Positions 1 through 8,889 of a stretch of DNA of 64,000 bases are shown here, piece after piece (positions within the stretch are counted from its first letter, which is position 1; each line of letters begins with the position of its first letter). The translations under genes were made by a program, and so were the position numbers. Location: positions 61,585 through 125,584 of the forward strand of contig JBFFUI010000003.1 of NCBI GenBank assembly GCA_041571435.1, written 5' to 3'. The DNA comes from Sulfurimonadaceae bacterium (GTDB lineage: Bacteria; Campylobacterota; Campylobacteria; Campylobacterales; Sulfurimonadaceae). The notes beneath the pieces were generated by a model that was not told the origin of the DNA, did no database searches, and worked only from the letters and a program-made list of their open reading frames with translations.

Positions 1-596
1 TTGTCCTCTTTGCCATTCCATTCTTTGATATACGTTCCCTCTTTGTAGCCGTGATCCTGACGGAACTGGTTAAGAATGTTCTTGCCGACATAAAGACGGT
101 AGAGGTCTTGCAGATTAAGCTTGCACATATAGGCCAGCTCGAAGAAATCTTCAAAAAGCTTGGCACTGTCAAACTTCTCGCGGTTGACCGTATTGCAGAT
201 AATGTCTTCGACCTTGTCCATAATCGTATGCGGCTCGGCAAACTGAAGATTCCCGTTCTTTTCAAGCGTTATATAGCCCGGCATCTGTGATGTCGTCATC
301 GCCAAGTCTTCGATGGTGCCGCGGAAGTTTTGCGAATAGTCTTCGAGACCAAGACTCATGATGAAGTGCCATACATCGACCACTTCGATCTGAAGGTTGT
401 CCCAGTCAGGTTCCTGGTTGATTGCTTTCCAGTGCTTCCAGGCAAACGAGTCCACCATCTCACAGCACTCCATGTAGATACAGCGTTTCCAGTTGATGAC
501 CTTGCCGTTTTTCGTATGTCCGGCCTCCCAGCCTTCGCCGTTCGTCGCATCGTTCAACTCCTGCTGCAGAAGCAACATCTCCAAGACTTTTTCCAT
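1..596 (-). CDS. dut: Dimeric (Campylobacter-type) dUTP diphosphatase, 3' end runs off the window
   Basis: Not in the ORF track. Manual translation from ATG at 596 (AGGAG RBS upstream): MEKVLEMLLLQQELNDATNG...WKHWK...EVVDVWHFIMS...KNILNQFRQDHGYKEGTYIKEWNGKED, the all-alpha dUTPase motifs. Confidence 0.9.
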   Translation of the reverse strand, partial: MEKVLEMLLLQQELNDATNGEGWEAGHTKNGKVINWKRCIYMECCEMVDSFAWKHWKAINQEPDWDNLQIEVVDVWHFIMSLGLEDYSQNFRGTIEDLAMTTSQMPGYITLEKNGNLQFAEPHTIMDKVEDIICNTVNREKFDSAKLFEDFFELAYMCKLNLQDLYRLYVGKNILNQFRQDHGYKEGTYIKEWNGKED

Positions 597-668
597 AAAC
601 ACTCCTATCGAATTATGCTGTTCTTTAGACAAGAGAAGTCTTCTCTTTTACAAAAACAGCTCATCATT

Positions 669-1103
669 TTACTCTAACTCTCCACCATTTTCCCTTTGCC
701 AATGGAGCTTTTTACCAAACCCCAAACGGTTGTCTGTCAGCTTGATATCTTCGAGCTCGATAGCCCATAACTGCGGGTTCATCACCTTGGCAAAAGGGTA
801 CGCCTTAAAATAGAGATGTCCCTCTTTTTGCGAGATCGCCTTCATCGTCGCTCTAAACTGAATTCCTTCGATCTTACCGACCTCATCCGTCTCCAGGGCG
901 ACCGTCCCCGAAACAGTTTTGTTGTCCAGAACATTCTTAATATGCTCTGTTTTTGTATCCGAAGCGACGACAAAAGTGACCTTCTCGGCGTCATAAGCAT
1001 AAAAGAGACTGGCTGACTGCGGCACATTGTCGGCCGAAGTAGCCAAAGAGAGCAGATGGTGTTTAGCAAGAAAAACGTTGATCTTCTCAAGCGTATCTGG
1101 CAT
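669..1103 (-). CDS. Pyridoxamine 5'-phosphate oxidase-like split-barrel protein (YhbP/UPF0306-like)
   Basis: FLAKHHLLSLAT, GIQF and KLTDNRLGFGKKLHW motifs; overlaps the upstream gene by 17 nt. Confidence 0.8.
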   Translation of the reverse strand: MPDTLEKINVFLAKHHLLSLATSADNVPQSASLFYAYDAEKVTFVVASDTKTEHIKNVLDNKTVSGTVALETDEVGKIEGIQFRATMKAISQKEGHLYFKAYPFAKVMNPQLWAIELEDIKLTDNRLGFGKKLHWQRENGGELE

Positions 1104-1986
1104 CGATCATCTCTTTGTATTTGGCAATGGCATCCGCATTGTTCATTCCCCGGTAGTTTGGCGGCAGCACATCCATCCCGCCGTAGGCACCCAGTACCGC
1201 GCCGACGATCATCCCCCGTGCGGCCGAATCACCGCCGGCAAGCACATTGGCCTCCATCGCTTCCTGGAAATCACTGAAACGTACAAGCAGATAGATCACC
1301 GCTGCAAAACCGCCGTCAACACTGCAGGACTGTCCCAGTGTTTTAATCGCTTCGATGCTCTCTGTCTCAGCCTTCGCAACCCCTTCCCGGACCCATTTTT
1401 GGATTTTGTCCGAATAGGCTAGGGCGATCTCTTCAATCGCCCGCCCTATCTCCGCACCCATACTGACGGCTAGGATCAGCTCGTTAAAGTAGGCCGCACT
1501 CTCGACAAGCTCTTTCGTCATGTGGGTAAAAACGGTGTGCAGTTTGACATACTCCATCATCTTGTCCATGTCGTTATGGTAGGCGTAGATAAGCGGTATC
1601 ATGCGTCCGACGACACTCAGGTCACGCGAACCGGAACCACAGGCCAACGAGTTTTTGCCTTCTGCCAATGCTGCTATCGTATGTTTGGATGCCCCGTCGA
1701 CATAGCCCTCATACGTCTCCATCTTGGTCTTCCATTTCATGGAGAAGCCGTGTACAGTGAACTCATCTTCTGCGATCGCTTCTAAAAGCCAAAGCATCTG
1801 GTCACCGTAATGCGTAAAGTCACCGGCGCCCTTACCTTTATGGTAATCCGTCAGCGGGTCATTAAAACGCTTGGTATCAAACTCCGATTTTGAGATCTGG
1901 TGTGTGTCGTAGAGCCAGTGCGCGCCCAGGGCGTAAGCATCCGCGTAAAAAGCACCCCACAGTGCCGCTTCAAGTCTGTTTTTCAT
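1087..1986 (-). CDS. ADP-ribosylglycohydrolase family protein (atypical subfamily)
   Basis: GAFYADAYALGAHW, FTHYGDQ, GGDSAARGMIVGAVLGA. Confidence 0.8.
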   Translation of the reverse strand: MKNRLEAALWGAFYADAYALGAHWLYDTHQISKSEFDTKRFNDPLTDYHKGKGAGDFTHYGDQMLWLLEAIAEDEFTVHGFSMKWKTKMETYEGYVDGASKHTIAALAEGKNSLACGSGSRDLSVVGRMIPLIYAYHNDMDKMMEYVKLHTVFTHMTKELVESAAYFNELILAVSMGAEIGRAIEEIALAYSDKIQKWVREGVAKAETESIEAIKTLGQSCSVDGGFAAVIYLLVRFSDFQEAMEANVLAGGDSAARGMIVGAVLGAYGGMDVLPPNYRGMNNADAIAKYKEMIDARYA

Positions 1987-2704
1987 CCAAAAACTCCTCT
2001 ATAAGTTCCAGCATCTCCTCAACCGCCTTCGTTGCCGGACTTTGTAAAAAATGTTCAAAATAGTCGTCGATATGTGTGTCAAAACGCCCGAAAGCGGTCA
2101 CATGTTCTTCGCGCTTCGGGTTGATCAGAATAGAGCGGCTGAACTCCTGTACCAAGGGGACGATGTCGATCACCTGTCCGCTCGTCCCGATGGCGATGAA
2201 CATGTCACTGGCATCGACTGCTTCATAGATATGCCGGTAGGCCGGTGCACTCTCGCCGAACATCACGACATTGTGACGAACGTTGTATTCGCCGCAATGG
2301 GGACACTGTTCATCCTCTTTTTGGCAACAGTAACCGACATGAAAGGTCTGTTGACAACTCTCGCACCGAAGATCGATCAGGGTCCCGTGCAGATGAAGCA
2401 CCTCTGTTGAGCCTGCCTTTTCCATGAGGTTATCGACATTCTGCGTCAGATGTATGATCTGGTTCGGATAGCGTTTCTCCAAGTCGGCCAGGGCGCGGTG
2501 CATTGCGTTAGGCTCTTTGTCCTCAAGTGCTTCGCGGCGGGCATTATAGAAGTTGGTCACCAGTGCTCTGTCTTGCTGCCAACCCTGCGTCGAGCAGACC
2601 GTCATCACGTCATAGTTCTCCCATAGCCCGTCACTGTCACGAAAGGTGCTGATGCCGCTCTCTGCGCTCAACCCGGCACCGCTGATGATCATCACTCTAC
2701 GCAT
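1970..2704 (-). CDS. cobB: Sir2/CobB NAD-dependent protein deacylase
   Basis: GAGLSAESGISTFR, TQNVD, HLHG, two CxxC pairs, VVMFGE, GTS; YxxRR typical of class III. Confidence 0.9.
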   Translation of the reverse strand: MRRVMIISGAGLSAESGISTFRDSDGLWENYDVMTVCSTQGWQQDRALVTNFYNARREALEDKEPNAMHRALADLEKRYPNQIIHLTQNVDNLMEKAGSTEVLHLHGTLIDLRCESCQQTFHVGYCCQKEDEQCPHCGEYNVRHNVVMFGESAPAYRHIYEAVDASDMFIAIGTSGQVIDIVPLVQEFSRSILINPKREEHVTAFGRFDTHIDDYFEHFLQSPATKAVEEMLELIEEFLDEKQT

Positions 2705-2713
2705 GGTGTCCTT

Positions 2714-3898
2714 TCAATACTCGTCAAAATCACTCAGGGCCATGTCCAGCTGAGCGATCGCATCATCCATCACCGGACCGGGAACGGCGAAGTTGAGCCG
2801 CATGTATCCCTTGCCCTCTTTGCCGAACGAGACGCCGGGGCTGAGCCCGAGTGCCGCATCTTCGATGAAAAAGCGCTTCAACTCACTGCTTCCAAGCCCC
2901 AGACCGGAACAGTCCAGCCATGCAAGATAGGTTCCCTGAGGCGGGATCAGACGGATCTTGTCACGGTGTCTTTCAACCAGCGCGCTGAGCTTTTCGATAT
3001 TGCGTTGCAGGTGGATCAACAGCTCATCAAGCCACTGCCCCCCTTCGCGGTAGGCCGCCTCAAAACCGACATGGGCGAAGATATTGCCCTGGGCAAAGTG
3101 GATGCGCTCATACGCATCGCTGAAGACCTCACGCATCTGCTCGTTCTGAACCACGACCGTTGAGACCCCTAGACCCGCCGTGTTAAAGGTCTTACCCGGG
3201 CCGATAGCGGTAATCGTGATGTTGGCAATCTCTTCGCTCAGCGAAGCAAAAGGGGTGTGCTTGTGAGGCGGATAGACGAGATCGGAGTGGATCTCGTCAG
3301 CGACAACTTTGATATCATGTTCCAGACAGATCGCTGCCAGATCCTGCAGCTCTTTACGTGACCATACCCGTCCGACAGGGTTGTGGGGCGAACACAGCAG
3401 CAGCAGCTTCGTATCCGCATCGATCTTGGAAACCAGGTCTTCAAGGTCGAACGTGTAGTCACCCTCCTCGCTCCGGTGCAGCGGATTGCGCAGGACTTCC
3501 CGTCCGTTGCGTGTCACATTGCTCAAAAACGGTGGGTAGATCGGTGTCTGGACGACCACCTTGTCACCCGGCTTGGTAAAGGCGTGGATCGCCGTGTTGA
3601 TCGTTGCGACCACGGAGGGAGAGTAGAACATCCATTCACGTTTCAACGTGATACCGTGACGCTCTTTCATCCACTCTATCTGCGCTTCATAGGCGCTGTC
3701 CGGGAGCTCTTCATAGCCGTATATGGGATGAGCGGCTCTTTTCTTGACCGCTTCGACGATGCAGGGCGGTGTCTCGATGTCCATGTCCGCCACCCACATG
3801 GGGATGACATCTTCGGTCTTGAACAGCTTTTGTCGCAGCGTGTATTTTTCAGCGTTTGTCGTTGAACGGTCCACAACACACTGAAAATCGAAACTCAT
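2714..3898 (-). CDS. PatB/MalY family PLP-dependent C-S lyase (candidate ovothiol sulfoxide lyase)
   Basis: PMWVADMD, LCSPHNPVGRVW, DEIHSD, GKTFN, MRLNFA; 4-nt overlap with ovoA. Confidence 0.88.
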   Translation of the reverse strand: MSFDFQCVVDRSTTNAEKYTLRQKLFKTEDVIPMWVADMDIETPPCIVEAVKKRAAHPIYGYEELPDSAYEAQIEWMKERHGITLKREWMFYSPSVVATINTAIHAFTKPGDKVVVQTPIYPPFLSNVTRNGREVLRNPLHRSEEGDYTFDLEDLVSKIDADTKLLLLCSPHNPVGRVWSRKELQDLAAICLEHDIKVVADEIHSDLVYPPHKHTPFASLSEEIANITITAIGPGKTFNTAGLGVSTVVVQNEQMREVFSDAYERIHFAQGNIFAHVGFEAAYREGGQWLDELLIHLQRNIEKLSALVERHRDKIRLIPPQGTYLAWLDCSGLGLGSSELKRFFIEDAALGLSPGVSFGKEGKGYMRLNFAVPGPVMDDAIAQLDMALSDFDEY

Positions 3899-6003
3899 CG
3901 TTTTTTCCAGACACTCATCTGCGCGATCGTATGCTGATACTTGCGGGCGGTCTCGGGAATGACAAACGGGACATCATGCGTCGCGACAAGATCAAACCTT
4001 GGCGACAACGCTTTTTTGAGCCCGTCAAGCGTAGTGACGTCTTTGCCCTCTTCGTCTCTGTAGCCGCCAAGCCAAAACTCTTTTTTGGTGTACTCTTCCA
4101 GCCAGGTATACGGCGAAGTGAGGACCAAAAAGCCGCCTGCGTTCAGACGATGCTCAACGTCGTTCAAGAACAGCATCGGCTCATACAGCCGGTCGATCAG
4201 GTTGGTTGCCATGATCAGGTCATACCCGCTGAAATGGGGTTTGAGATTGCAGGCGTCACCCTGCCAGAAGTCAACATTTTGGGCGAGCTCGCTGAAACCG
4301 AGCTCCTCGAGTGTCACACTCTCTTCTGCCGTAATGTCCCCCTCGACGACACGTTTAAAGGTGATCTTTTTATCATTTTTGAGGGCAAGCCCCGCCTGTA
4401 TGAAACGGGCTGAAAAATCGATCCCCGTCACCTTGTCAAAACCGTGGGCCAGTTCAAAACTGGCCCGTCCCGTCGCACAGCCAAGGTCAAGGGCGTGCCC
4501 CATCGGTGTCCCTTTGGCGTACTCCAAAGCGTACTCGGCACACTTCTTCGCAAAGTTCTCGACACCAAAATGGTCAATCCCGTACTGGAAGTGGCAATAC
4601 TGCGACACAAGCGCGTCACTCTCATAGATATTTGCTTTCTCTGTTGACATCGTCTCTCCTTCGACTACTCTAAAACCGGCGTGCTGGTAAAAATGGCGCC
4701 GGAACGCATAACGTGAATGCTTCATTATCTCATTGCCGCTGCTCGCCCACGACCCGCCTTTGATGATGTTGTGTTTTCCGTCAAAGGTCGGCACGGAGAA
4801 ATCATCATAGACGTAGTGCGGCTCAAACCCTTTAAAGCCGTTCATATGACTCTCCGTCCACTGCCAGACATTGCCCATAAGGTCGTAAAAGTCGCCGAAG
4901 GCGAACATATCGACAGGACAGGATGAGGCGTAATGCGAAAAGTTGATGTTGGCCCTGCTGTCGTCCAGCTCAGGCACATCCTTGATCCCGGCCCGCTCAT
5001 ACAAAAGGTACCACTCCGCTTCGCTCAAAAGGCGGTACGTTCTACCCTCTTTTTCGCTTTTCCATCGACAGTAGGCCTTCGCTTCCAGGTAGTTGACGTC
5101 GACTGGCCAGTTCATCGGCATGGCAATGACCTCGGCCATCGCCCGGTAGTCAAACGTGCCATCTCCTCTGTCGACCCAAAACGGCGGATGGGCCGCTTTC
5201 GAGCGTTCCAGAAAACGCCGGCCCTCTTCGTCCCAAAACGCGGCATTTGTATAGCCGTCATCACGGACAAAGGCCAGGAACTCGCCGTTGGAGCAGAGGT
5301 ACTTTGCGGCGCTGAAGGGCTTGACCTGCTCGTGTTGGACGCCGTACTCGTTGTCCCAGCCGTAGAGGTGGTGATTTCTCTCTTTACCCAGCGTGACCTC
5401 GCCGCCGGCGACATCGATCATGCTGTTCTCCGGTGCCGGTCCGCTCTTACTGCACAGCGGAAAGTCGGCAACCGGTTTGACCTTCTCTATGGGAAGCTGG
5501 CGATGCAGCACGCTCGAGGTCTCGATATGGATGCATTCATGCTCGATCCCCATCAGTATGACCCACCATGGGCTCTCCTGCGTGATGGGCAGGGTCAGAG
5601 GGAGTGTGGTGATAAGGCTGTCGACAAGGGCACGCACCTCACGCCGGTATGCTCTGGCCTCCGAGACCTTCGGCCACCGGTAGTTGCTGCTTTCGAGGTC
5701 ATCCCAGTGCATCTCGTCCACACCGATGGCGAACATCGACTCGAACTCTGGGTTAAGACGTTCATCGATCACCTTGGCGATCATCAGCTTGTTGACGAAA
5801 AAGGTGGCGGTATGCCCAAAATAGAAGATCAGCGGATGACGCGTAGGCTCGGGCTGTTCGTAGTAGACACTGTCATCGACAAAGGTCGTAAACAGCTCTT
5901 CAAACAGATCATAGGTCTTGTGAAAATAGGCTCTGATCTCTTCGCGCTTTTGGTCAGCATCACTACCTGTCAACGTTACCGGCATCGTGTGGAGTGGGTG
6001 CAA
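3895..6003 (-). CDS. ovoA: 5-histidylcysteine sulfoxide synthase OvoA (DinB + FGE-sulfatase + SAM methyltransferase domains)
   Basis: RHPLIFYFGHT, FAIGVDEM, HExIHxE iron motif, YGWDNEYG, YDDFS, RYAFRRHFYQHAGFR, C-terminal DLGCATG methyltransferase; TTG start with GAAGGAG RBS. Confidence 0.92.
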   Translation of the reverse strand: MHPLHTMPVTLTGSDADQKREEIRAYFHKTYDLFEELFTTFVDDSVYYEQPEPTRHPLIFYFGHTATFFVNKLMIAKVIDERLNPEFESMFAIGVDEMHWDDLESSNYRWPKVSEARAYRREVRALVDSLITTLPLTLPITQESPWWVILMGIEHECIHIETSSVLHRQLPIEKVKPVADFPLCSKSGPAPENSMIDVAGGEVTLGKERNHHLYGWDNEYGVQHEQVKPFSAAKYLCSNGEFLAFVRDDGYTNAAFWDEEGRRFLERSKAAHPPFWVDRGDGTFDYRAMAEVIAMPMNWPVDVNYLEAKAYCRWKSEKEGRTYRLLSEAEWYLLYERAGIKDVPELDDSRANINFSHYASSCPVDMFAFGDFYDLMGNVWQWTESHMNGFKGFEPHYVYDDFSVPTFDGKHNIIKGGSWASSGNEIMKHSRYAFRRHFYQHAGFRVVEGETMSTEKANIYESDALVSQYCHFQYGIDHFGVENFAKKCAEYALEYAKGTPMGHALDLGCATGRASFELAHGFDKVTGIDFSARFIQAGLALKNDKKITFKRVVEGDITAEESVTLEELGFSELAQNVDFWQGDACNLKPHFSGYDLIMATNLIDRLYEPMLFLNDVEHRLNAGGFLVLTSPYTWLEEYTKKEFWLGGYRDEEGKDVTTLDGLKKALSPRFDLVATHDVPFVIPETARKYQHTIAQMSVWKKR

Positions 6004-6026
6004 CTTCTCTCCTTCTTGTTTACACT

Positions 6027-6035
6027 ATTTTAGCA
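6027..6035 (-). promoter_or_regulatory. Putative extended -10 promoter (TGcTAAAAT) of the ovoA operon
   Basis: Minus strand reads TGCTAAAAT about 24 nt upstream of the ovoA start. Confidence 0.55.
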
Positions 6036-6145
6036 GATTCTCTTTTGGCAAGGCTTAGTATGACAGGCCGAAGATAAGGTTTTAGTGTAGAGTAAAAATG
6101 TGCTCTGAATTATTGAGAGTAGAGAAAAGTGAAAAGCTTTGTGGA

Positions 6146-6234: not shown

Positions 6235-7911
6235 TTACTTTGTAAACCCAAGCTGCAGATGTGGGTGTCGACTTCCCTCAATACCACTATCTATAGTCGT
6301 TGAACCTGGTGTCATTGCACCCGTGTTTGAAATAACACCATTACCACCGTAATAAACTAAAATATCATTAGCTGATGTACCTGGATACATTTGTACCGTC
6401 AAGTTCTTAGTTGGATCATATGTAAAGCCTGATACCGGAACAGTGACCCAATCGCCCGCCTTAGTGCCTGCCGGAATTGTAATATCACCGGTGTAAACTA
6501 CCGTTGCATCATCCATGTTGGCTGCCAGCGTAGCATCAAGATCTGTCAGTGTCGTATGGCCTATTGTAATATTTGCATCGGTATATGTAACGTCAGCCGC
6601 AATATCCTGAGCTACCCTAAAGCCTATACTATTTAAAGTAGCACCTGTACCAAAGACCTGAGAACCATAGATAGCTATTGCCCCTGTACCACCACTGTTT
6701 AAAGGCACTCCATATGCAGCCAAATTCGTCTCAACGACACTCATCGGCGCACCGTTGAAACGGAATTTTGTATCATATGCAGTGGTACTTGCAGCCGTTG
6801 CAGTACCGTCTGTTCCAGTCAATCTGACAACACCTTCCGCAGTACTTCTAGTCAATGTTGTACTCGCTGTTGCAGCTGTTACATTAATGTCCACGATAAG
6901 GTTGTCCGTTCCATTGTAATTAAAGCTTCCGCTCAAAGGCACCCAGAACCAGTCTCCTACTGCCAAATTGGCTGGAACAGTAAAGGTTACGTTGTTCTCC
7001 ATGACAGTTGGTGTTGCACTGTAGCTATCTTCGAACAAAGTTCCACTCGTAAATTCGGTTAGTGCAGTATGTCCCATTTTTACCGTTGCCGAATAAGTTG
7101 CTTCCGCTGTCACAGCACCAACCTGAAATGCGACTCCAGTTAAAGGGCCTGAACCATTGACATCGCTCGCCTTATAAAGCATCTGTGCCCTCGGTAATGA
7201 AGTGGAAAATGGCCATGTATTACCTGTAGTTCCTGCATAATCAATTGTATTGACGCCGCCTGCAAAGGTAAAGTCCATATCATTTCGCCATGCGAAAGTA
7301 ATTCCTGTCCCGGTATTTCCAAATTCATATACCAGTGAAACTGGTGCCACATATTCACCCAGATCTTCAAAAGTACCGTCACATGCAGCTACCCGATCAA
7401 ACCCCACAACAAGATTATCCATACCGTTATAATTAAACGGTGTATCGAGTTTTATTGTAAACTTATCACCTGCAGAACCTGCAGGGACTGTGAGAGACCC
7501 ACCAGCCCTTACTATTTCATTCGTTCCGGCACCTTGTTCAACGTTATCTGCAAATGTTGCCGTCAAATCCGTCAGGGTAGTGTGACCCATTTTGATCGTC
7601 ATATCTGGACAGATTACATCTGCAACCAAATCACTTCTATAAGTAAAACTGATTTCATTAATATATCCAGACCCTTCTATCTCCGACGATGGATATAATA
7701 CTTGTACGTGCATATCAGCAGTAGGAACAAAAGTCACTCCAGTATACATATTCGCTGCTGGTATAGTTGAAGATTTTATAAATCCGCCAGTTGCTAGTGT
7801 ACTACCACCGCCACTACCACCGCCGCTGCTGCTGTCACTGCTACATGCTGTCATTGCGACTACCGCCGCGATCGACGCCAGTACTGCCGTTGTCTTTTTG
7901 ATCATTTTCAT
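6235..7911 (-). CDS. Lipoprotein with three ~170-aa internal repeats, function unknown
   Basis: Start moved to MKMIKK at 7911 (AAGGGAG RBS); lipobox AMTAC, Ser/Gly linker, three repeats carrying LY..S...G, MGHT and F.Y.G..NL.V-like motifs. Confidence 0.8.
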   Translation of the reverse strand: MKMIKKTTAVLASIAAVVAMTACSSDSSSGGGSGGGSTLATGGFIKSSTIPAANMYTGVTFVPTADMHVQVLYPSSEIEGSGYINEISFTYRSDLVADVICPDMTIKMGHTTLTDLTATFADNVEQGAGTNEIVRAGGSLTVPAGSAGDKFTIKLDTPFNYNGMDNLVVGFDRVAACDGTFEDLGEYVAPVSLVYEFGNTGTGITFAWRNDMDFTFAGGVNTIDYAGTTGNTWPFSTSLPRAQMLYKASDVNGSGPLTGVAFQVGAVTAEATYSATVKMGHTALTEFTSGTLFEDSYSATPTVMENNVTFTVPANLAVGDWFWVPLSGSFNYNGTDNLIVDINVTAATASTTLTRSTAEGVVRLTGTDGTATAASTTAYDTKFRFNGAPMSVVETNLAAYGVPLNSGGTGAIAIYGSQVFGTGATLNSIGFRVAQDIAADVTYTDANITIGHTTLTDLDATLAANMDDATVVYTGDITIPAGTKAGDWVTVPVSGFTYDPTKNLTVQMYPGTSANDILVYYGGNGVISNTGAMTPGSTTIDSGIEGSRHPHLQLGFTK

Positions 7912-8114
7912 CTGTACTCCCTTGTACATAAATATAAGGGAAACGAATCCCTCTTGCAACCATTATATTCCTAGTAAATGAAAAGTAAACTGAAATCTTA
8001 TGAATATTAAAAAACATATGATGTTAAAATACCATAGAGACAATGGATTTATGACGTAACAAGTTATATTTTTACCAACATGTATTTCTTTAAAAACAAT
8101 CACAGATCTTGATG

Positions 8115-8120
8115 TATAAT
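8115..8120 (+). promoter_or_regulatory. -10 box (TATAAT) directly upstream of pgeF
   Basis: TATAAT ends 7 nt before the ATG; no Shine-Dalgarno. Confidence 0.55.
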
Positions 8121-8127
8121 ATGCCCT

Positions 8128-8889
8128 ATGTACGCTATTGAAAGTCAGCAACTTAAAGCTTATCCGCAGCTCGCACACACCTTTACAACCCGTCACGGCG
8201 GCATTTCCAAACTGCCATACGAGAGTAACAACCTTGCTTTTCATGTCGGTGACGATGCCGAGACCGTCATCCAGAACCACAAGCGACTAGCCCAAGAGAT
8301 GGGCTATGACTACACCAATCTCGTCCACATGCGCCAGGTCCACTCGGACAACGTCGTCATCGTCGACCCCGAACTCCATGACTTCGAGCATCCGCCGGAG
8401 TGTGATGCCCTCATCACCGACAAGCCCGGCATCCCCCTGATGGTCATGACTGCCGACTGTACGCCGGTCCTTTTTTTTGATCCGGTCCAAAACGTCATCG
8501 CCGTCGCCCATGCCGGACGTGCCGGCGCCATCATGGGGATCGTACCGAAAACTATAGAGAAAATGTGTACTCACTACAAAAGCCGAAAGGATGATATAGT
8601 TGTCGTTCTCGGTCCCTCAATAGGCGGATGCTGTTATGAAGTCGGTGAAACGATTGGCAAAGAGATACTGGAGAGTCCCAACGCTTTTGCCGTCATACAG
8701 AGAGATGAAAAATACTTTTTAGAAGTCAACGCCATTATCCACATGCAGCTTGAAGATATCGGCATCTTGCAATCGCACATCGACGACCTGAACATCTGCA
8801 ACGCCTGCGAAAACGAGACCTATTTTTCCTACCGGGCAGACAGGCAAAAGACCGGGCGTATCGCCGGGGTTATAATGCTGAAAACGTAA
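8128..8889 (+). CDS. pgeF: PgeF/YfiH (laccase-domain purine nucleoside phosphorylase, peptidoglycan editing factor)
   Basis: FTTRHGG, QVH, CDALIT, TADCTP, AHAGR, GPSIGGCCYEVG, FSYR. Confidence 0.92.
   Translation: MYAIESQQLKAYPQLAHTFTTRHGGISKLPYESNNLAFHVGDDAETVIQNHKRLAQEMGYDYTNLVHMRQVHSDNVVIVDPELHDFEHPPECDALITDKPGIPLMVMTADCTPVLFFDPVQNVIAVAHAGRAGAIMGIVPKTIEKMCTHYKSRKDDIVVVLGPSIGGCCYEVGETIGKEILESPNAFAVIQRDEKYFLEVNAIIHMQLEDIGILQSHIDDLNICNACENETYFSYRADRQKTGRIAGVIMLKT

Follow-up and report, generated by a model that had tools for sequence, protein, structure and literature searches.

A probable ovothiol operon in a Sulfurimonadaceae genus and its non-canonical ARH-fold protein, a candidate accessory enzyme

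The ovothiol genes ovoA and ovoB stand, in a 64,000-nt stretch of DNA from a sulfur-oxidising Sulfurimonadaceae bacterium (the window, on contig C3 of genome G000), at the head of a gene string that continues with a sirtuin, a protein of the ADP-ribosylhydrolase (ARH) fold and a YhbP-like split-barrel protein; the question raised by this locus is which of the last three, if any, belong to ovothiol biology. Ovothiol biosynthesis is held to require just OvoA and OvoB, and we know of no account of its reduction, repair or use in bacteria. An earlier note on this DNA proposed that the sirtuin and the ARH form an NAD+/ADP-ribose module coupled to ovothiol synthesis; that module is not borne out, as the ARH-fold protein lacks the canonical site and the sirtuin is an ordinary one. 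Our own reading, held tentatively and with a little less than even confidence, is that of an ovothiol operon with a candidate ARH-fold accessory enzyme and passenger genes. The five genes of the string are the following.

3895-6003, minus strand: ovoA, 702 aa, TTG start (TIGR04344 and TIGR04345)
2714-3898, minus strand: ovoB, 394 aa, pyridoxal phosphate (PLP)-dependent C-S lyase of the PatB family (TIGR04350)
1970-2704, minus strand: CobB-like class III sirtuin, 244 aa (PF02146)
1087-1986, minus strand: non-canonical ARH-fold gene, type A, 299 aa (PF03747)
669-1103, minus strand: YhbP-like split-barrel (PNPOx-like) gene, 144 aa (NF002900 and PNPOx_N, both below cut-off)

The coordinates agree exactly with the arrangement described in the earlier note: ovoA and ovoB overlap by 4 nt, ovoB and the sirtuin gene are separated by 9 nt, and the sirtuin and ARH genes, like the ARH and split-barrel genes, overlap by 17 nt. 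This five-gene string is probably one operon, co-transcription being read from gene anatomy.

The ARH-fold protein and its association with ovoA

The ARH-fold protein matches PF03747 at 142.8 bits (cut-off 26.2) over profile positions 1-286 of 287, and its best solved relative is MJ1187 (1t5j, E 2e-22 with a profile). When aligned to MJ1187 the canonical catalytic Glu is replaced by His23, the T-D-D-T-E-Q motif reads T58-H59-Y60-G61-D62-Q63, and GGD-T-D-S reads GGD253-S-A-A with an invariant Arg257 after it. Besides the Glu, four of the six canonical metal ligands are thus missing, and the residues in their place are invariant within the clade to which the protein belongs. Relative to the canonical ARHs (ARH3, DraG and MJ1187) the PF03747 fold, the Asp of the GDA motif, the T-H motif and the first Asp of GGD are kept, whereas Glu has become His23, D-D has become His59-Tyr60 and D-x-D-(S/T) has become D-S-A-A plus Arg257. 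The earlier description of this ARH as atypical is therefore upheld. Judging from the alignment, a binuclear Mg/Mn site of the known kind cannot form, and the metal site appears to have been rebuilt with His, Tyr and Arg; given these losses, ARH3-like hydrolysis of O-acyl-ADP-ribose is unlikely. The DraG equivalog model TIGR02662 gives just 26.9 bits against a cut-off of 337. The protein is under strong constraint, because 53 columns are invariant across 18 homologues that are 40-88% identical, and the residues so constrained differ from the canonical set. A role as substitute for OvoB was considered and rejected, both genes being present in the window and in genome G275.

Four types of this protein, A to D, are distinguished and appear from their shared residues to be one non-canonical clade: all four have D16, H23, Y26, Y48-H49, T154, GG and R257, and types B, C and D likewise lack the canonical catalytic motifs. 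The clade is marked by GDAxALGxH(W)xYD, by Y48-H49 and by GG(D/Q)xxxR in place of the metal ligands. A look-up of the window protein in a protein atlas returned ARH-family clusters only, from Thermodesulfobacteriota and Campylobacterota, with nothing on function. Type B is encoded by at least 553 metagenome stretches; the type-B protein of a 65%-GC genome (L191:9509-10591) is 61% identical to those of Arcobacter (L156:14408-15478 and L182:7932-8999), with about 190 invariant columns in 360, which makes it a highly conserved, uncharacterised and widespread protein with no fixed neighbours.

The association of the clade with ovoA is seen in two samples. Among 201 genomes of Campylobacterales, type-A ARH (called with a profile at E <= 1e-20) is found in 14 of 83 ovoA-positive genomes and in none of 118 ovoA-negative ones (Fisher 2e-6, with kin that are not independent); the 14 genomes span 5 families and 11 genera. 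The second sample was the same set of genomes whether drawn around the Flavobacterium G075 or around G088 (Pseudomonadales), and is treated as a broad one rather than as a single phylum; it holds 401 genomes, 19 of them with ovoA; together with the Flavobacterium genome G075 they make 20 ovoA-positive genomes, whose ovoA loci range from 37 to 68% GC. Clade matches scoring 80 bits or more are present in 8 of these 20 and in 0 of 60 ovoA-negative genomes (Fisher 4e-6, kin again not being independent), the best match in the 60 reaching 49.7 bits.

Beyond co-occurrence, ARH genes of three subtypes adjoin ovoA in at least four separate contexts. Three Arcobacter genomes of genus g68 have, on one strand and with an 88-nt gap, an RraA-like gene, a type-B ARH (356 aa), ovoA and comEC; other Arcobacteraceae hold an unrelated gene of 735-738 aa in the place of the ARH. 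Genome G275 (65% GC) shows ovoA, ovoB, a type-B ARH and a photolyase on one strand. In G075, G501, G585 and G645 a type-C ARH (372-391 aa) is convergent with ovoA, their 3' ends overlapping, and in three of these four genomes an NhaC-type transporter lies on the other side of the pair; in G032 a type-D ARH lies 3.6 kb from ovoA. Over the broad-sample ovoA-positive genomes, 5 of about 15 clade genes fall within 100 nt of ovoA or ovoB, where about 0.01 would be expected by chance. The link between ARH and ovothiol genes that the earlier note saw in this locus stands in a changed form: it recurs in other lineages and does not require the sirtuin.

Two of these settings hold further genes of possible interest. 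The Arcobacter loci (L156:15550-17085, L181 and L182) have no ovoB next to ovoA; upstream are the RraA-like gene and, in two of the three, a gene for a PLP enzyme of the Beta_elim_lyase family, a possible candidate for the C-S lyase. At the G275 locus the photolyase gene (L191:10425-12026, plus strand) overlaps the end of the same-strand ovoA-ovoB-ARH run, and a pyridine-nucleotide disulfide oxidoreductase gene (L191:3333-4715, minus strand) lies some 1.5 kb ahead of ovoA, with two folate-synthesis genes in between; its product is a possible candidate for an ovothiol-disulfide reductase.

A eukaryotic parallel is found in Chlamydomonas, where a study of singlet-oxygen responses lists the ADP-ribosylglycohydrolase gene Cre01.g016150 beside Cre08.g380000 as induced by singlet oxygen in a SAK1-dependent manner (PMC4067076); the latter gene is named OVOA1 in a preprint (10.64898/2026.02.12.702910). 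An ovoA homologue and an ARH-family gene are thus induced together there under oxidative (singlet-oxygen) stress, with the difference that the link is one of co-expression rather than of gene linkage.

How far type-A genes stray from ovoA was seen in a scan of one genome per species, in which the best 80 of 582 relatives were inspected. Eighteen of the 80 loci are of the ovothiol type, of which 16 show ovoA and 14 the sirtuin; three (L061, L065 and L075) have ovoAB...ARH-YhbP and no sirtuin. For the remaining 62 loci, which belong to Arcobacter, Sulfuricurvum, Desulfobacterales, Spirochaetes, Clostridia and one Flavobacterium, nothing that matches the window ovoA, sirtuin or YhbP was seen within 8 kb. 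Neighbours around the best 80 loci are lineage-specific only, such as an Arcobacter small membrane protein, DsbA-like and radical SAM genes, or the Mla genes of Desulfosarcina. In 50 genomes whose type-A ARH is not beside ovoA, 28 encode an OvoA above cut-off, two encode fragments and 20 encode none; 27 of the 50 are outside Campylobacterota, and OvoA is present in just 7 of these 27, which is above the background of 19 in 401 (p 5e-4). The ARH clade is enriched with and repeatedly drawn to ovoA, yet is not bound to it.

The ovothiol genes, their promoter and the sirtuin

The 702-aa OvoA contains DinB_2, FGE-sulfatase and methyltransferase domains. Its N-terminal sulfoxide synthase part (residues 9-447) scores 683.2 bits with TIGR04344 (cut-off 400) and its C-terminal 4-mercaptohistidine N1-methyltransferase part (residues 460-701) scores 326.4 bits with TIGR04345 (cut-off 170); by these family models ovoA encodes a bifunctional 5-histidylcysteine sulfoxide synthase and 4-mercaptohistidine N1-methyltransferase. 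OvoB is a PatB-type C-S lyase (TIGR04350, 544 bits against 340) whose gene adjoins ovoA, and in most ovoA loci examined across the order ovoB comes straight after ovoA in the same orientation, as a rule with an overlap. From their membership of these families, OvoA and OvoB would together make ovothiol A. The arrangement is that of the Erwinia tasmaniensis type, a bifunctional OvoA followed by an overlapping PatB-type C-S lyase; the difference lies in the three or four extra genes of what is probably the same transcription unit. A survey of bacterial ovoA, in its accessible text, names only ovoB or egtD as cluster partners, with no sirtuin, ARH or YhbP among them (PMC8433421), and in the literature on ovothiol and on YhbP no paper was found in which any of these three is described as part of an ovothiol operon. 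In genus g29 of the family the OvoA frames (L145:4923-6326 and L177:1085-2542) are just some 470-490 aa long and seemingly lack the C-terminal methyltransferase domain; such a short OvoA would yield 5-thiohistidine, not ovothiol A, unless another methylase acts.

A single promoter appears to serve the string, and the sequence ahead of ovoA is accordingly listed as one further feature.

6026-6059, minus strand: conserved promoter block of 34 nt, ACTAAGCCTTGCCAAAAGAGAATCTGCTAAAATA, containing the extended -10 box

The extended -10 box, TGCTAAAAT (of the TGnTAAAAT type), is at 6035-6027 on the minus strand, followed by a ribosome-binding site, AGGAGA, at 6012-6007 and by the TTG start at 6003. 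The 34-nt block (6059-6026) is nearly unchanged in 11 of 13 aligned members of the genus, so that the single extended -10 box reported ahead of the string is confirmed and is seen to be conserved across the genus. A generic promoter scan marks TTGCCA-16-AATAGT (9 of 12 matches) at the same place; the promoter and terminator scan gave sites no more numerous than in shuffled sequence, with nothing convincing between the five genes. The 24 nt on the 5' side of the extended -10 box, ACTAAGCCTTGCCAAAAGAGAATC, are as conserved in the genus as the box itself, and the surrounding intergenic DNA is not; this part of the block may be an operator, a putative regulator binding site.

The sirtuin scores 148.5 bits with PF02146 (SIR2) and has E. 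coli CobB as its best solved relative (1s5p, E 3.8e-43). In the CobB alignment it keeps the NAD motif GAGxSxxSGIxxFR, YNARR, the catalytic His of HG and the CxxC...CxxC zinc site; the Y-x-x-R acyl-carboxylate motif and these Sir2 motifs define the class III sirtuin deacylases. All NCBIfam CobB models give scores below their cut-offs (the best is NF001753, 184.2 bits against 243), and by its motifs the protein is a divergent, CobB-like class III member that groups with CobB and SIRT5. A search of G000 gave one sirtuin match, which makes this the sole sirtuin found in the genome, and sirtuins are present in relatives that lack ovoA (G018, G037, G038 and G040). The sirtuin is best read as the general CobB-type lysine deacylase of the cell and is most likely a positional passenger on the ovoA promoter in this genus.

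An identity as a SirTM-type ADP-ribosyltransferase was rejected on account of the class III marks. SirTM-macrodomain operons couple a sirtuin with GcvH-L and LplA2 in oxidative stress, and the present locus resembles them in placing a sirtuin beside an ADP-ribose-type hydrolase fold in an oxidative-stress-linked locus. The two differ in that the sirtuin there is of class M, while the one here is of class III, CobB-like and with Y-x-x-R; in that the partner there is a macrodomain, while here it is an ARH fold without the canonical catalytic site; and in that the sirtuin-ARH pairing here is confined to one family. In scans with Pfam and NCBIfam none of the nine proteins encoded at the locus matched a macrodomain, GcvH or LplA family.

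The locus across relatives and its neighbouring genes

The locus was mapped in 40 relatives, to which another 38 ovoA loci from across the order were added. Within Sulfurimonadaceae a backbone is apparent, in which pgeF faces ovoA-ovoB-[79-aa open reading frame (ORF)]-[sirtuin]-[MltF-like]-[78-aa ORF]-[ARH]-YhbP-dUTPase, the bracketed genes being variable. All 15 congeners have ovoA-ovoB-sirtuin, and ARH-YhbP too where the contig allows (contigs break in four). The order ovoAB-(small ORF)-YhbP-dUTPase, from which both sirtuin and ARH are missing, is seen in G016, G017 and genera g28 and g29; in G018, which lacks ovoA, the dUTPase-YhbP pair still lies next to pgeF and faces it. The sirtuin and YhbP also travel apart from ovoA, as G020 has small ORF-sirtuin-YhbP...dUTPase away from ovoAB, and G024 has ovoB-sirtuin-YhbP away from ovoA. 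Over the 12 ovoA-bearing genera of the family, the ovoA or ovoB locus holds the sirtuin in 5, type-A ARH in 2 and YhbP in 7 to 9; near ovoA in the 33 genera of the order outside the family, no sirtuin, type-A ARH or YhbP was found. In the rest of the order ovoAB keeps other company, in strings of unrelated genes such as kdsA-ovoAB-ribH-nusB-pyrF (two families) and DUF6394-ovoAB-PBP4 (another family), or lies beside nuoABCD.

This survey of ovoA neighbourhoods, which the earlier note had called for, therefore gives a divided answer on the sirtuin: the linkage stands in 15 of 15 congeners and fails in 7 of 12 genera of the family and in 33 of 33 other genera. As the sirtuin lies near ovoA in only 5 of 12 family genera and in 0 of 33 outside, the two are unlinked in most relatives once the genus is left. 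The sirtuin and ARH are likewise not a fixed pair; their pairing is confined to one family, since at the 62 other type-A loci nothing matching the window sirtuin was seen within 8 kb of the ARH. In 5 of the 6 genera that hold a sirtuin orthologue the sirtuin is next to YhbP, even where ovoA is elsewhere.

In about half of the genus an MltF-like gene parts the sirtuin gene from the ARH gene; it is seen in at least 6 of 15 congeners (G001, G004, G005, G009, G010 and G014), with fragments in G008 and G011. The product, an MltF-like lytic transglycosylase, combines an N-terminal membrane anchor with SBP_bac_3 and SLT domains, and the ends of the gene overlap its neighbours; it is found at L024:9043-10509 (plus strand), at the same position in L021, L025, L029, L030 and L034, and as fragments in L028 and L051. 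A search of G000 with these queries did not find it. Two small ORFs without a Pfam match recur in the family. One, of 73-81 aa (M.KINWDEYK...LLEFLRSFYN...), follows ovoB and precedes the sirtuin or YhbP in 13 distinct family loci (L077:6667-6906, plus strand; homologues in L037, L038, L042, L061, L065, L069-L072, L074, L075 and L133) and accompanies sirtuin-YhbP in G020; the window locus lacks it, and a search of G000 with this query gave no match. The other, of about 78 aa (MQFLT.FKI.EL..GW.WPDI...), immediately precedes the type-A ARH gene wherever it occurs, in 5 distinct loci of Sulfurimonas type (L072:7391-7621, plus strand; homologues in L070, L071, L075 and L077, the last being the same as L041), and is absent from the window.

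The split-barrel protein scores below the curated models, at 123.3 bits with NF002900 (cut-off 176) and 25.4 bits with PF01243 (PNPOx_N; cut-off 28.1). As a single sequence it gave no match to solved structures at E up to 1; a profile of 23 homologues gave a weak match to general stress protein 26 (3ec6, E 0.002), and the product may be described as YhbP-like. YhbP is present in 26 of 41 relatives, three of them without ovoA (G018, G035 and G040), and no other gene downstream of ovoAB is as constant within the family. Downstream of it, at the edge of the window, is one more gene.

3-632, minus strand: dimeric dUTPase, likely true start ATG 596; the gene runs off the window start (PF08761)

The dUTPase scores 116.7 bits with PF08761 (cut-off 22.9) and 253.6 with NF049964 (cut-off 300; the gene is cut by the window end), and lies 3' of YhbP in nearly all family loci; it may be a sixth gene of the string, perhaps the last of the ovoA transcript. 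Both this gene and the YhbP-like one are read as syntenic neighbours, independent of ovoA.

On the other side, between ovoA and pgeF, the window holds a gene for a 574-aa protein (6235-7959) and an ORF of 105 aa (7963-8280), both on the minus strand. The 574-aa protein has no Pfam family and only a faint match to a lipoprotein signal peptide; its gene is present in the window genome, G002 and G004, and in the other mapped congeners pgeF directly faces ovoA.

Weighing the explanations

The reading preferred here, graded at the outset as somewhat short of even, is that of a lineage-specific, single-promoter operon of one Sulfurimonadaceae genus, which would have accreted on the backbone of pgeF facing ovoA-ovoB-...-YhbP-dUTPase. 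OvoA and OvoB would supply ovothiol A, the general deacylase would be transcribed from the ovoA promoter by position only, and the ARH-fold protein would most likely be an accessory enzyme of ovothiol or thiohistidine metabolism; its association with ovoA is observed, and our best guess at its chemistry is hydrolysis in the recycling or repair of an adduct derived from ovothiol. The ARH-fold protein is taken as a candidate because the rebuilt-site clade is statistically tied to ovoA in several lineages. Several findings weigh against this reading. The sampled genomes are kin, so the Fisher values overstate the association; 20 of the 50 genomes with a type-A ARH lack ovoA (they are Desulfobacterota, Spirochaetota and Clostridia), and the function of the clade is for that reason not strictly OvoA-dependent. 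Neither ovoA nor ovoB was found in the flanks of any of the best 80 metagenomic type-B loci (53 loci with at least 1.5 kb upstream, 53 with at least 1.5 kb downstream, 33 with at least 2.5 kb on both sides), around which no neighbour is common to more than 8 loci, and ovoA is missing within 8 kb of the 62 type-A loci described above. A tree of the ARH proteins (83 rows, built by a quick method) requires no fewer than 4 label changes for the ovo-linked type-A genes, and a single origin of these genes could be compatible with the tree, so that the adjacency of ARH and ovoA in Sulfurimonadaceae counts as one event. The adjacency of sirtuin and YhbP could, moreover, reflect a functional unit rather than passengers, or else slow rearrangement.

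Much of the same evidence is what would be expected if only ovoA and ovoB belonged together, the rest were unrelated neighbours, and the ARH-ovoA association were a matter of chance or of a common ecology. In the compact genomes of Campylobacterota unrelated genes often share an operon; the present block also holds the plainly unrelated pgeF, MltF-like gene and dUTPase, the ovoAB pair sits in housekeeping strings in other families, and the distant type-A and type-B loci and the ARH-bearing genomes without ovoA are readily accommodated. Such pure synteny is nevertheless rather unlikely in our estimation, as it does not account for a co-occurrence of 14 in 83 against 0 in 118 and of 8 in 20 against 0 in 60, for immediate adjacency in at least four contexts and with three ARH subtypes, for the number of clade genes within 100 nt of ovoA or ovoB, or for the co-induction of an ARH-family gene and OVOA1 in Chlamydomonas. 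A different connection, in which the ARH and the YhbP-like protein would form a two-component, flavin-dependent enzyme acting on ovothiol, for example by reducing or repairing its oxidised form, takes its appeal from the overlapping YhbP gene 3' of the ARH in 17 of 18 ovo-type loci (the exception being at a contig edge) and from the constancy of YhbP beside ovoAB within the family; PNPOx-like split barrels often bind flavin mononucleotide (FMN). This enzyme is nonetheless very improbable, given that YhbP is present in relatives without ovoA and occurs without the ARH in most family genera, that no YhbP is near the ARH outside the family, and that the YhbP-like protein falls short of the curated Pfam and NCBIfam cut-offs.

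The proposal of the earlier note was as follows: the sirtuin would yield O-acyl-ADP-ribose or ADP-ribosylate a target, the ARH would hydrolyse the product, and both would be a redox-stress module co-regulated with ovothiol. The 17-nt overlap of the two genes in the window, the presence of both in the ovothiol locus of all 15 congeners and of a second genus (g7), the sirtuin in 14 of 18 ovo-type ARH loci, its persistence beside YhbP when apart from ovoA (G020 and G024) and the precedent of the SirTM-macrodomain operons all speak for it. Against these stand the loss of the catalytic Glu and of four of six metal ligands in the ARH, and a sirtuin that bears all class III deacylase marks, no second one having been found in the genome. 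The gene neighbourhoods also argue the other way: L061, L065, L075 and G275 have ovoAB with an ARH and no sirtuin; the 62 type-A loci show no match to the window sirtuin within 8 kb, and none is reported in the 80 type-B flanks; the MltF-like gene splits sirtuin from ARH in at least 6 of 15 congeners; and the sirtuin is linked to ovoA in 0 of 33 genera outside the family. The module is thus improbable, and the sirtuin is, in correction of that idea, most likely an ordinary deacylase that rides the ovothiol promoter in one genus.

For the biology of ovothiol, the preferred reading of the ARH-fold protein as an accessory enzyme directs attention to a family that, in two independent samples, occurs almost only where ovoA does, and which is a testable candidate for the next step of the ovothiol pathway; an ARH fold with a rebuilt metal site would also be a place to look for new chemistry. 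A wider proposal, which we consider doubtful, is that the clade is a missing and widely conserved thiohistidine enzyme that would recycle, repair or release an ovothiol adduct formed in oxidative stress, rather than reverse ADP-ribosylation, in organisms from sulfur-oxidising Campylobacterota to Flavobacterium-like bacteria and green algae. If this were true, the presence of the ARH in strict anaerobes without OvoA would point to an oxygen-independent source, or to the uptake, of such thiols.

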